Source: a virus
Taxonomy: Duplodnaviria; Heunggongvirae; Uroviricota; Caudoviricetes
Direction: 5' to 3' (one strand)
Virus record (IMG/VR): IMGVR_UViG_2537562194_000035
Length of the DNA: 41,291 nt
Below are positions 33,410-35,326 of the stretch, one piece after another. The translations under genes were made by a program, and so were the position numbers. Every line of letters begins with the position of its first letter. Within the stretch, counting starts at the first letter, position 1. Under the pieces are notes generated by a model. It searched no databases. It worked only from the letters and a program-made list of their open reading frames with translations, and had not been told where the DNA came from.

Positions 33410-34320
33410 TGTTCCATGTTGATAATAATTCCGGCGTGGCGAATATGCCTGCGCTGGCACCGGCGCAGAGTAATACCACCACCTGGTTTACCGAAGGTGA
33501 CGGACAAAAAGGTATCAGCTGGATTGGTCAGGACTGGCTGAATATTCTCCAGGCCGAACTGCTGAATATTCTGGCTGAAGCCAGTATTCAGCCGGATAAG
33601 GCGCAGTTAAACCAGCTTACGCTGTCCATTAAAGCCATTATCGCTGCGAATGCCTTTTCCCGGAAAAACAACCTGAAAGAAATTGCTGATGCCGGTGCGG
33701 AAGCCCAGCGTCTTGCCCGTGGTTATCTTGGTCTTGGGGCGCTTGCCACAAAAAACAGTCTTGGTCCCGGTGACGTTAATGCTCTGGCGAAGGATCAGAA
33801 CCTTGCCGACCTGGAGAATGCGGGAACCGCCCGTAATAATCTGGATGTTTACAGCAAAAGCGAAGGTGATAACCGTTACCTGCGCAGGGAGCAGAACGGC
33901 GCAGACATTCCGGATAAAGGCGCTTTTATCGATAACGTTGGTTTACGGGAAACGGTAAATAAGGCTGCTGATGCCCTGCCATCGGGTGGAACCGCCGTGG
34001 CAGCAAACAGACTCGCCACCCCAAGAAATATTAATGGTGTTCCTTTTGACGGAACGCTGGATATCAACATCACGTCAGGAATGACGCAGTCAACCGCAGA
34101 TGGCCGGTATGTACAGAATGTTCAGCTTGGAGCACAGAGCTATCATTCACCCGGAGGCAATGAAATGTCATGGAATTACAGCGCACCTTCCGGTTGTATG
34201 CTTTCCGGAATTAACGTGCAGGAAACCGGCTCCAGGTCTGCGGACAATATCGGTGGGGTCTATTATCGCCCGGTTCAGATTTATATTAATAATGCCTGGA
34301 GAACGGTAAGTTCAGTGTAA
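33409..34320 (+). CDS. Tail fibre protein S: constant N-terminal part fused to the currently expressed variable C-terminus (Sv)
   Basis: ATG 33409 (MFHVDNNSG...) overlapping the previous stop. A gix-like site lies in codons DNVGLRE (33926-33951); the C-terminal part after it has a paralogue on the minus strand. Confidence 0.8.
   Translation: MFHVDNNSGVANMPALAPAQSNTTTWFTEGDGQKGISWIGQDWLNILQAELLNILAEASIQPDKAQLNQLTLSIKAIIAANAFSRKNNLKEIADAGAEAQRLARGYLGLGALATKNSLGPGDVNALAKDQNLADLENAGTARNNLDVYSKSEGDNRYLRREQNGADIPDKGAFIDNVGLRETVNKAADALPSGGTAVAANRLATPRNINGVPFDGTLDINITSGMTQSTADGRYVQNVQLGAQSYHSPGGNEMSWNYSAPSGCMLSGINVQETGSRSADNIGGVYYRPVQIYINNAWRTVSSV
33926..33951. other. gix-like crossover site 1, inside the tail fibre gene
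   Basis: TTATCGATAACG TT GGTTTACGGGAA closely resembles Mu gixR as recalled (TTATCCAAAACC TC GGTTTACAGGAA). Confidence 0.7.
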
Positions 34321-34326
34321 ACCACA

Positions 34327-34353
34327 GAAAAGGGTGCTGAATGCACCCTCTGA
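34327..34353. terminator. Hairpin between convergent fibre and chaperone genes
   Basis: AGGGTGC / GCACCCT stem (34331-34337 and 34343-34349) with A-run upstream; T-tract downstream is weak. Confidence 0.5.
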
Positions 34354-34354
34354 A

Positions 34355-34876
34355 TTATTCCGGTTTTTCCGGCCAGGGAATCGCCTGGTAATGCCCCTCA
34401 CTGGCAATATCATTAAAGTGCATTTCTTTAAGCTGTCGGATATACGCCATCCAGCGCGTCAGCTGTAATTTATTTTCATCGCTAATCATGTCCAGTTTTA
34501 ATTCTGTTTTCCAGTCATCCACGGTTTCGTTGGCTTCCTGGAGCAGCGATGAGCGACGCTTTTCAGCAACCGTCTTCCAGTTTACCGGCACCTTTGATAT
34601 CAGGCCATCAGAAAACTGCCAGTTACCGTCAATATTCACACCTTCCGGCAGTTCGTCCACTTCAACAACAGTAAAACCTGCCGGATATAAAGCAGAGACA
34701 TCTTCAGCAACAGAGCAGATAATACCCGTTACAGGCGAAATACAGAGTTTGTATTTCTTTGTGAAAAGCGGGATAGATTCATAAAAATCCCTTCCGTCCT
34801 CACTCTGGAAATACTGAACATCCTCACCATAGGGTTTGTGTTCCGGGTAATATCGTTTTACGTTAATAAGCTCCAT
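34355..34876 (-). CDS. Tail fibre assembly chaperone (Mu U/U'-like)
   Basis: Start at ATG 34874-34876 (MELINVKRYYPE...) with AAGGTGA SD; ...ISDENKLQLTRWMAYIRQL... and C-terminal PEKPE resemble Mu U. Confidence 0.8.
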   Translation of the reverse strand: MELINVKRYYPEHKPYGEDVQYFQSEDGRDFYESIPLFTKKYKLCISPVTGIICSVAEDVSALYPAGFTVVEVDELPEGVNIDGNWQFSDGLISKVPVNWKTVAEKRRSSLLQEANETVDDWKTELKLDMISDENKLQLTRWMAYIRQLKEMHFNDIASEGHYQAIPWPEKPE

Positions 34877-34955
34877 TATTTCACCTTGTTTTTGTTGAAA
34901 AGACAAAATCATCATATATTTATTCAGATAATCTGTTTTTTGAACTACTGCACTT

Positions 34956-35318
34956 TTATGCGCTGGAAGCTGTTTTCCACGAACCATCTATCAGAAACTG
35001 AACAGGTCGATAATATGCGGTTACCGTTGCATTACCATCACCAGCGACATCAAGCCCTGTAAGTACGCATCCGTCAGGAACTTCAAAAATATTATATTGC
35101 ATTCCAATCGTTGACCTTGAACCTCTTCGAATGCTTTGAACATAACGTGAGTCAGCCACAGACTGCGTCATCCCCGATGTAATATTTATATCCTGCGTTC
35201 CGTCAAATGGGACACCATTAATATTTCTTGGAGTGGCGAGTTTATTCGCTGCAACAGCCGTTCCGTTCGATGGCAGGGCATTCGCGGCCCTGTTTACAGT
35301 ATCCCGTAAACCGAGGTT
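34956..35318 (-). CDS. Alternative tail fibre C-terminal segment S'v, promoterless in this orientation
   Basis: Minus-strand frame is open from the gix site (NLGLRDTVNRAANALPSNGTAVAANKLATPRNINGVPFDGT...) to the stop at 34956; near-identical to the plus-strand S for about 45 residues after the gix site, then divergent. Confidence 0.75.
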   Translation of the reverse strand, partial: NLGLRDTVNRAANALPSNGTAVAANKLATPRNINGVPFDGTQDINITSGMTQSVADSRYVQSIRRGSRSTIGMQYNIFEVPDGCVLTGLDVAGDGNATVTAYYRPVQFLIDGSWKTASSA

Positions 35319-35326
35319 TCAGGGAT
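35301..35326. other. gix-like crossover site 2
   Basis: ATCCCGTAAACC GA GGTTTCAGGGAT, near-palindromic; resembles Mu gixL as recalled (TTCCTGTAAACC GA GGTTTTGGATAA). Confidence 0.7.

Follow-up and report, generated by a model that had tools for sequence, protein, structure and literature searches.

Organization of the switch region

The window analyzed here is the whole 41,291-nucleotide (nt) stretch of the IMG/VR virus record IMGVR_UViG_2537562194_000035. It represents an Sp18-type Mu-like prophage of enterohemorrhagic Escherichia coli (EHEC), and the subject of the analysis is its tail-fiber switch: a DNA segment, bounded by two crossover sites and adjoined by an invertase gene, that carries two alternative C-terminal ends of the fiber protein and a single gene (tfa) for a tail-fiber assembly protein, or chaperone. 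The switch region is 100% identical to that of E. coli O111:H8 strains 95NR1 and 95JB1, and the window matches prophage Sp18 of E. coli O157:H7 Sakai (ECs_4989 to ECs_4992) at 99.7% identity, with equal genes in equal orientation. That Sp18 has an invertible host-specificity region with genes distinct from those of Mu has been on record since 2009 (Asadulghani et al., PMC2669165). By its recombinase, its sites and its observed inversion, the region is a switch of the Gin/gix family. Its features, with their positions in the window, are the following.

33409..33939, plus strand: Sc, the constant part of tail-fiber gene S, outside the segment and up to the crossover; annotated ECs_4989 in Sakai
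33409–34320, plus strand: gene S as a whole, 303 residues
33926..33951, no strand: gixL-like left crossover site, core TT on the plus strand (= AA)
33940..34320, plus strand: Sv, the variable C-terminal 126 codons now fused to Sc, including the tip of ~72 residues
34329..34351, minus strand: hairpin separating the two convergent stops, resembling a terminator on the tfa strand, where a T-run follows
34355..34876, minus strand: tfa, the sole tail-fiber assembly (chaperone) gene, 173 residues; annotated ECs_4990 in Sakai
34877..34955, minus strand: A+T-rich spacer of 79 nt from the S'v stop to the tfa start
34956..35312, minus strand: S'v, the other variable C-terminus (118 codons and a stop), start-less and silent in the present orientation; inverted genomes have its natural fusion product annotated as WP_032213164
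35301..35326, no strand: gixR-like right crossover site, core GA
35327..35380, no strand: gixR–gin spacer, which presumably holds the gin promoter and has a weak leftward promoter candidate, GTGGAA-17-TATACG, on the minus strand
35381..35941, plus strand: gin-like serine DNA invertase, 186 residues, with the Pfam domains Resolvase and HTH_7

The segment spans 1.4 kb. The Sv stop and the tfa stop lie 34 nt apart, and the sequence between them forms the hairpin. The GC skew changes sign over 34300–35350, as expected with minus-strand coding. In the present orientation, Sv is fused to Sc and tfa is not co-oriented with Sv, as an earlier note on this stretch, made from the letters alone, had stated.

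Invertase, crossover sites and the reading frame

The invertase shows both of its expected domains (PF00239 Resolvase, E = 1.4e-51; PF02796 HTH_7, E = 1.7e-14) and is 75% identical to Mu Gin. The left site reads TTATCGATAACG TT GGTTTACGGGAA and the right site ATCCCGTAAACC GA GGTTTCAGGGAT; in inverted orientation the two have the exact 11-mer TCCCGTAAACC in common. The earlier note had proposed inverted gix-like sites with such a shared stretch, and its coordinates proved exact. The homology to gix sites, on which it had made its reading depend, also holds: aligned with the Mu sites, the left one agrees with gixL at 21 of 26 positions and the right one with gixR at 19 of 26. With at most one mismatch, the 11-mer occurs at two places only in the 41-kb window (chance expectation 0.49; two or more occurrences in 9 of 100 shuffles). 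Scored against the family consensus, gixL and gixR are the top two 26-mers of the window (20/24 and 19/24), the next one reaching 16/24. They are the outer ends of a 182-nt inverted repeat, 79% complementary, which is simply the homologous start of both variable parts.

A third crossover site, which could flip tfa alone, was sought among the window 26-mers, and none scored above chance. The third-best gix-like 26-mer (34841–34866, 16/24) lies within the first tfa codons, a place at which a quasi-site could be of consequence; another window 26-mer ties with it, which is the chance level. The locus has no arrangement of more than two sites for multiple inversion, such as a shufflon or Min of the p15B type.

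To follow the reading frame, we inverted the segment in silico by cutting at the 2-bp core. The frame is kept, giving an S-S'v protein of 295 residues, with tfa co-oriented downstream of it. The predicted protein differs by one residue from the protein annotated in the naturally inverted genome FORC_044. The frame is thus preserved over both sites and inversion swaps Sv for S'v, as had been suggested. Within gin itself, nt 66–105 are highly conserved with Mu gin, in whose 5' part we take the Fis-dependent enhancer to lie; both genes have a weak, degenerate match to the Fis motif at nt 71.

Inversion in nature and differing crossover cores

We used a 2.7-kb query to take a census of orientation in 5426 complete E. 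coli genomes (coverage ≥80%). The window form was found in 182 genomes and the inverted form in 23, many of the latter being ≥99% identical over the full length. Among IMG/VR contigs, both orientations are present within each lineage of relatives described below.

What is new in the window copy is that the 2-bp cores of its two sites differ. Located at 33938–33939 and 35313–35314 and read in the same sense, they are AA on the left and GA on the right. The earlier description of matching sites is thus correct for the exact 11-mer, but it had overlooked the cores. GA is also the Mu core and the state of nearly all IMG/VR relatives; Sakai has AA/AA and FORC_044 has GA/GA. An identical 2-bp core is a feature of Gin, Hin, Cin and Pin systems; the window copy lacks it, and the family assignment stands.

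The distribution of the cores was examined by counting exact matches of 60-nt junction queries in E. coli genomes, as follows.

Window orientation, left junction, AA core: 87 exact matches
Window orientation, left junction, GA core: 75 exact matches
Window orientation, right junction, GA core: 89 exact matches
Window orientation, right junction, AA core: 24 exact matches
Inverted orientation, right junction, GA core: 13 exact matches
Inverted orientation, right junction, AA core: 2 exact matches

These counts are marginals, core pairs having been read directly at 20-odd loci only; for AA/GA copies the strict lower bound is small, and their number is likely several dozen. In the window orientation, AA/GA pairs (left/right) were read in the window, in strains 118 and 134 and in F1273, GA/AA pairs in 13E0780, strain 150 and O111:H8 99.1145, AA/AA pairs in Sakai, 98E11 and 2013C_3653, and GA/GA pairs in Wll001 among others. 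In E2865, the core of the right site has three nt, GAA. Across EHEC genomes (loci L001, L002 and L097–L100 included), the first core base is G or A and varies independently at each site. At inverted loci with both sites read, the cores matched in nine of nine cases (seven GA/GA, two AA/AA); among the loci read, mismatched pairs occur in the window orientation only.

For Hin, a single base change in one hix core prevents ligation in the inverted orientation (PMC4817059). Taken together with the AA and GA cores, this leads us to predict that inversion of the window copy is probably strongly impaired by the core mismatch and that the copy is effectively held in the Sv orientation.

One of the inverted AA/AA loci, that of strain 2014C-3050 (L097), has a silent Sv fragment (1933–2317 of the locus) that is annotated as frameshifted, the reason being an error in sequencing or else decay of a cassette that is not expressed.

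The fiber and its two tips

Sc is 46–48% identical to the N-terminal ~190 residues of the S proteins of Mu and SfMu, and a phmmer search matches Mu S of the S–U complex in PDB entry 5YVQ (E = 4e-49). The fiber amounts to a 'mini-S': residues 1–198 and the last ~74 align to Mu S residues 1–191 and 435–503 only, and the Mu S shaft of ~230 residues is absent from the 303-residue fiber. The two tips have different relatives. The Sv tip is 60–69% identical to the tips of Rac-SA53, of P2-like H proteins and of SfMu S', and the S'v tip is 57% identical to that of Hafnia phage yong1 and 40% identical to that of Mu S.

In every Sv-class tip examined outside the Sp18-like family, tfa starts 2–20 nt after the fiber stop. 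The same distance was found in Mu, SfMu, Yersinia phage vB_YpM_5, Rac-SA53, P2-like phages, yong1 and Actinobacillus phage pPE4, as well as in the large myoviruses CR8 and POP15 (Vequintavirinae) and in ~50 co-linear IMG/VR loci. The ratio of nonsynonymous to synonymous substitution rates (dN/dS) for the Sv variable part is 0.07–0.11 against diverged lineages (dS 0.6–1.5), and Sv is therefore a working coding sequence rather than a relic.

A single chaperone and its probable partners

The tfa product belongs to the Pfam family Caudo_TAP (PF02413, E = 1.9e-18, 67 bits versus a cut-off of 22) and matches Mu U (5YVQ_B) with E = 2e-15. A tblastn search with ten Tfa/U query proteins revealed no second Tfa anywhere in the window. 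The claim of one chaperone only, co-oriented with S'v, is thereby borne out, as is the contrast drawn with the Sv-U / U'-S'v arrangement of Mu: tfa is single here, whereas two such genes are present in Mu, SfMu and vB_YpM_5. No second chaperone reading frame exists on the plus strand either. The candidate there, an open reading frame (ORF) of 98 residues antisense to tfa, shrinks to 60–61 residues in sister lineages and to 44 in a co-linear relative, and it is therefore not a gene.

Several observations bear on which tip this Tfa serves. Its nearest counterpart in the phage collection is that of Rac-SA53 (53% identity overall, 69% over the N-terminal 91 residues), where the fiber tip is 69% identical to Sv versus 38% to S'v. 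In the ~50 co-linear IMG/VR loci, Tfa proteins of the window clade (54–59% identical; N-domain 62–71%) mostly stand behind Sv-like tips (57–75%). The same clade is also found behind at least four other tip classes, at least five in all, which argues for broad compatibility. Contig L018 combines a Tfa of lineage A type with a co-oriented tip of lineage B type. A contig scan for Tfa relatives with one genome per species gave zero confirmed matches. North et al. reportedly found in 2019 that the variable N-domain of Tfa binds the fiber tip, the C-domain being conserved. Because Sv-class tips elsewhere are linked to tfa and the window Tfa clade is usually found behind such tips, a dependence of Sv on Tfa is very likely, and the single Tfa is probably shared by both tips, as far as can be judged from sequence relationships.

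Conservation of the one-tfa layout

The order tip, tfa, hairpin, tip is found again in the three diverged lineages A, B and C, the Tfa proteins of which are 61–64% identical. Gin, where it is on the contig, is 81% identical to that of the window in lineage C and 98–100% identical in lineage B. Between the convergent stops, a hairpin is found at a conserved position, its stem having another sequence in lineage C. The spacer ahead of tfa measures 51–121 nt in the one-tfa invertible lineages versus 5–17 nt in co-linear fiber–tfa pairs. The tip that has no co-oriented tfa is of the Sv class (ADN(I/V)GGVYYRP) in each of the three lineages, and the co-oriented tip represents three classes. The layout is also present in a more distant Sc relative with a different Tfa type (L143). 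Another such relative, L135, has two chaperone-like ORFs.

L143 (IMG/VR 2878893965_000006, 4501–8371) merits a separate remark. It codes for an Sc 73% identical to that of the window within a 472-residue fiber, and for one convergent Tfa of 229 residues with an N-domain like that of Mu U'. Before gin there are apparently two silent tip fragments, so that by its sequence the locus is possibly a version with one chaperone and three tips.

Conservation of the layout in three lineages and purifying selection on Sv argue that the single chaperone is not a recent accident. The earlier note had offered three ways out for an expressed Sv without a co-oriented chaperone. Loss of a gene from the segment, understood as a recent defect, is not supported in view of a layout kept in lineages with saturated dS and of the low dN/dS of Sv. 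Folding of Sv without a chaperone is disfavored by the constant presence of tfa 2–20 nt downstream of Sv-class tips elsewhere. The third possibility, a chaperone shared by some unknown route, is favored, and the Sakai array data described next hint at a separate S'v-tfa unit; the promoter of such a unit was not located.

Evidence on tfa expression in the Sv orientation

In the Sakai reference sequence, the segment lies as in the window. Bergholz et al. 2007 (PMC2241611, Additional file 2) followed an uninduced Sakai time course with 70-mer arrays, in which ECs4990 (tfa) and ECs4991 (the S'v fragment) rise jointly at the transition to stationary phase. The log2 index ranges from -1.08 to +1.31 for ECs4990 and from -0.93 to +1.06 for ECs4991, with the same shape; that of ECs4989 (S) stays between -0.45 and +0.46, and ECs4993 is flat (PMC2241611). 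Since the two genes rise together while ECs4989 changes little and ECs4993 is flat, the data show that S'v-tfa in Sakai is a minus-strand transcription unit of its own, apart from its neighbors. The unit starts to the right of the ECs4991 probe; the S'v arm, gixR and the spacer on the gin side are the places where this start may fall.

Three promoter candidates read by hand, TTCAAA-16-TAAATA in the spacer ahead of tfa, TTGACG-16-TATTAC in the S'v arm and GTGGAA-17-TATACG by gixR, are weak and unconserved between lineages, and we did not retain them.

Favored explanation and its rivals

The account that we favor, and to which we would give somewhat better than even chances as a whole, combines a Gin/gix host-range switch, one Tfa for both tips, a separate leftward tfa transcript and an Sv orientation held by mismatched cores. 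The invertase would recombine two inverted 26-bp sites, one inside S and the other just upstream of gin. The resulting 1.4-kb flip would exchange the last ~126 codons of S (Sv) for ~118 (S'v) in frame, and the single Tfa would serve both tips. With S'v in place, tfa would follow S-S'v on the transcript of the late operon. With Sv in place, it would be read from a separate leftward transcript covering the silent S'v fragment and tfa, a transcript that is assumed to supply enough Tfa during lytic growth. Should its promoter lie beyond the segment ends, transcription of tfa would depend on that promoter in one orientation and on the late operon in the other. In the window copy, the AA and GA cores are expected to block inversion and to hold the Sv orientation.

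A sharper variant of this account, which we regard as tentative and rather doubtful, assumes two promoters that face inward, the late-operon promoter at the left and, at the right, a fixed one on the gin side reading leftward, so that tfa would be read either way, with the core polymorphism acting as a reversible lock. If it were true, one tfa would be expressed in both states and the second chaperone of Mu-type segments would be dispensable. The polymorphism of the first core base (G, A or the 3-nt GAA) would then represent a natural reversible lock, spreading by recombination across mismatched cores.

A number of points weigh against the favored account. The array data describe a lysogen entering stationary phase, not lytic growth, and are probe-based; moreover, the Sakai culture may have been mixed in orientation, because its cores matched (AA/AA). 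A scan for sigma-70 promoters gave no match of at least 9/12 in the 79-nt tfa spacer or in the gixR–gin spacer, and the latter spacer is not conserved between lineages A and C. Neither was a Mu-type late (C-dependent) promoter motif convincingly found in the segment; the search compared Mu Plys, PI and Pmom with the regions upstream of lys, I and com in the window and yielded no usable shared motif. In the Sv orientation, the late transcript reaches the hairpin from the side without a T-run and could read through tfa in antisense. As for the lock, all four core combinations are present in the window orientation, which implies rare recombination between mismatched sites or else homologous recombination between prophage copies. 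The distribution of A and G across the two sites is compatible with rare cross-mismatch recombination followed by repair, as well as with exchange between prophage copies; for Cin, recombination across mismatched cores and subsequent repair were reportedly described by Iida and Hiestand-Nauer. Finally, covariation of the Tfa N-domain was measured at rho 0.71 for the co-oriented tip and at rho 0.66 for the convergent one, in three lineages only. Covariation was accordingly abandoned as a means to decide the partner of Tfa, both tips being tracked about equally and the independent lineages being too few.

Of the competing explanations, the one that fares best is that Sv is chaperone-independent: the short 303-residue fiber, devoid of the ~230-residue shaft, would trimerize alone and only S'v would need Tfa. 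In every one-tfa lineage, tfa is indeed co-oriented with and downstream of the other tip, the unlinked tip is of one class in all three lineages and could tolerate the lack of a linked chaperone, and a tfa promoter for the Sv orientation was not found. Nevertheless, Sv-class tips outside the family have tfa within 2–20 nt in four unrelated phage groups, the window Tfa clade is paired most often with just this class, and the tip is homologous to the U-bound tip of Mu S in 5YVQ. We consequently think this explanation unlikely.

It might also be argued that the segment is degenerate, an ancestral Sv-U / U'-S'v arrangement having lost U. Particles with Sv would then be fiber-less or non-infective, and the late genes of the prophage would be unselected. 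Two chaperone genes are present in Mu, SfMu, Yersinia vB_YpM_5 and L135, and the phage collection contains no plaque-forming isolate of the Sp18-like family; the 34 nt between the Sv and tfa stops hold no remnant of a second gene. Set against this are the strong purifying selection on Sv at saturated dS, the persistence of the one-tfa layout in three lineages and L143, and the Sv orientation of most sequenced copies. In addition, Sp18 was rated intact and its DNA is packaged efficiently (Asadulghani et al., PMC2669165). Degeneration thus appears quite improbable.

The explanation given the least credence supplies Tfa for Sv in trans, either from another resident prophage or from a minority of genome copies flipping during lytic replication: EHEC genomes do have many tfa genes, some strains have 2–4 Sp18-like copies (up to 8–9 matching places per genome) and related Tfa proteins (54–59%) accompanied by Sv-like tips are frequent among other prophages of enterobacteria, but a host-dependent supply fits poorly with a layout conserved over long divergence, the predicted block would prevent flipping of the window copy, the late genes of other prophages are not expected to be on in Mu-type lytic growth, and Mu flipping is rare per generation.

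Prophage surroundings

The genes flanking the switch are homologues of Mu gp44–48, and homologues of Mu C, lys, I and T lie upstream. Homologues of com and mom are found at 39314–40160 on the plus strand, the latter product being 76% identical to Mu Mom, and a GATC cluster upstream of them resembles the Dam-regulated Pmom region of Mu. Between gin and these genes lies an ORF of 679 residues (36041–38080, plus strand), at a place where Mu has nothing. It comprises a SASA (sialate O-acetylesterase-like) domain at residues 116–312 and a C-terminal DUF6645 domain (E = 2e-69). Judging from these domains, it could be a surface-glycan esterase carried as a moron, or a second receptor-modifying function.

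Elements of this family also occur in unusual settings. In the Shiga toxin-converting phage records LC727881.1 and LC727895.1 (L006, 93 kb), a Mu-like phage of the Sp18 family is inserted, forming a prophage within a prophage; compared with the window, its tips are 85% (Sv) and 98.6% (S'v) identical. Some E. coli genomes have several matching places, up to 8–9, and a few matches are on plasmids (e.g. NZ_CP074995.1). Where Sp18-like copies reside together, homologous recombination could exchange sequence between them.

Comparison with known systems

Tail-fiber inversion is the textbook case of host-range bet-hedging by phages, and the accepted design pairs each fiber end with its own chaperone. 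The closest parallel to the present switch is the G segment of Mu and its SfMu counterpart. Besides the invertases (75% identity), the 26-bp sites are alike in position, one at the corresponding place in S and the other directly ahead of gin, as is the GA core of the right site, which we call ancestral. In both systems, Sc is outside and the alternative C-termini are inside on opposite strands, the fiber N-terminus, tip and Tfa being homologous. The differences are nevertheless considerable. The Mu segment has 3 kb with variable parts of ~330 codons, whereas here there are 1.4 kb and ~120–126 codons. Mu has two chaperones (U and U') in contrast to one here, so that an assembly gene co-oriented with each tip is absent. 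Furthermore, it is here that the Sv and tfa stops converge on a hairpin, that a 79-nt spacer precedes tfa and that extra genes, including the SASA/DUF6645 gene, are inserted between gin and com/mom. Sp18 of Sakai itself differs from the window in its cores (AA/AA versus AA/GA). In the papers that we examined, we found no discussion of its single chaperone.

A second system with fewer chaperones than tips is the 'shufflon' of a P2-like prophage of enteropathogenic E. coli (EPEC) E2348/69, for which inversion was demonstrated in cultures (Goldberg et al. 2014, PMC4272514). It has three fiber C-termini and one annotated tfa that is co-oriented with one of them only, and a serine recombinase gene adjoins it. 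It differs in its fiber-tip family (ending ...RPRNIAFNYIVRAA), and its Tfa has no tblastn match (E ≤ 1e-3) to the Tfa of the window or to nine other Tfa/U proteins. Unlike here, three crossover sites are present, so that the orientation of tfa can change without regard to the tip expressed, and no spacer precedes tfa. The EPEC locus named 'Mu' by Goldberg et al. has two tfa genes, and its repeat resembles that of e14. Similarly, the 'Mu-like' inversion confirmed with long reads by Milman et al. 2023 (CP066032) was considered as a member of the Sp18-like family and rejected, being truly of Mu type with two tfa genes.

Tail1/tail2 of Rac-SA53 and H/G of P2 provide the closest relatives of the Sv tip (62–69%) and of Tfa (53%, N-domain 69%). 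Unlike the present segment, they are non-invertible, with tfa behind the Sv-class tip on the same strand after 2–20 nt. Hin/hix, Cin/cix and Pin/pix share the recombinase family and the design of the 26-bp site, and the AA core of Sakai-type copies is, we presume, the hix core. Hin switches a promoter, in contrast to a coding end here. The Cin and Pin segments carry paired chaperones, as does Mu.

Overall, the segment is a real variant of a well-known type of switch, one that has been conserved, and the element that carries it had been recorded before. A conserved design with one chaperone and two or more tips implies that chaperones are less tip-specific than the paired layout suggests, and that chaperone expression must be independent of segment orientation. 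Both the sharing and the expression of the chaperone bear on the engineering of fibers and tailocins with swapped tips. The orientation of the switch and the state of its lock decide which hosts the phage can reach, and Sp18-type elements reside in major EHEC lineages (O157, O111, O26 and O103). The core polymorphism constitutes a natural data set on serine-invertase sites that cease to match.

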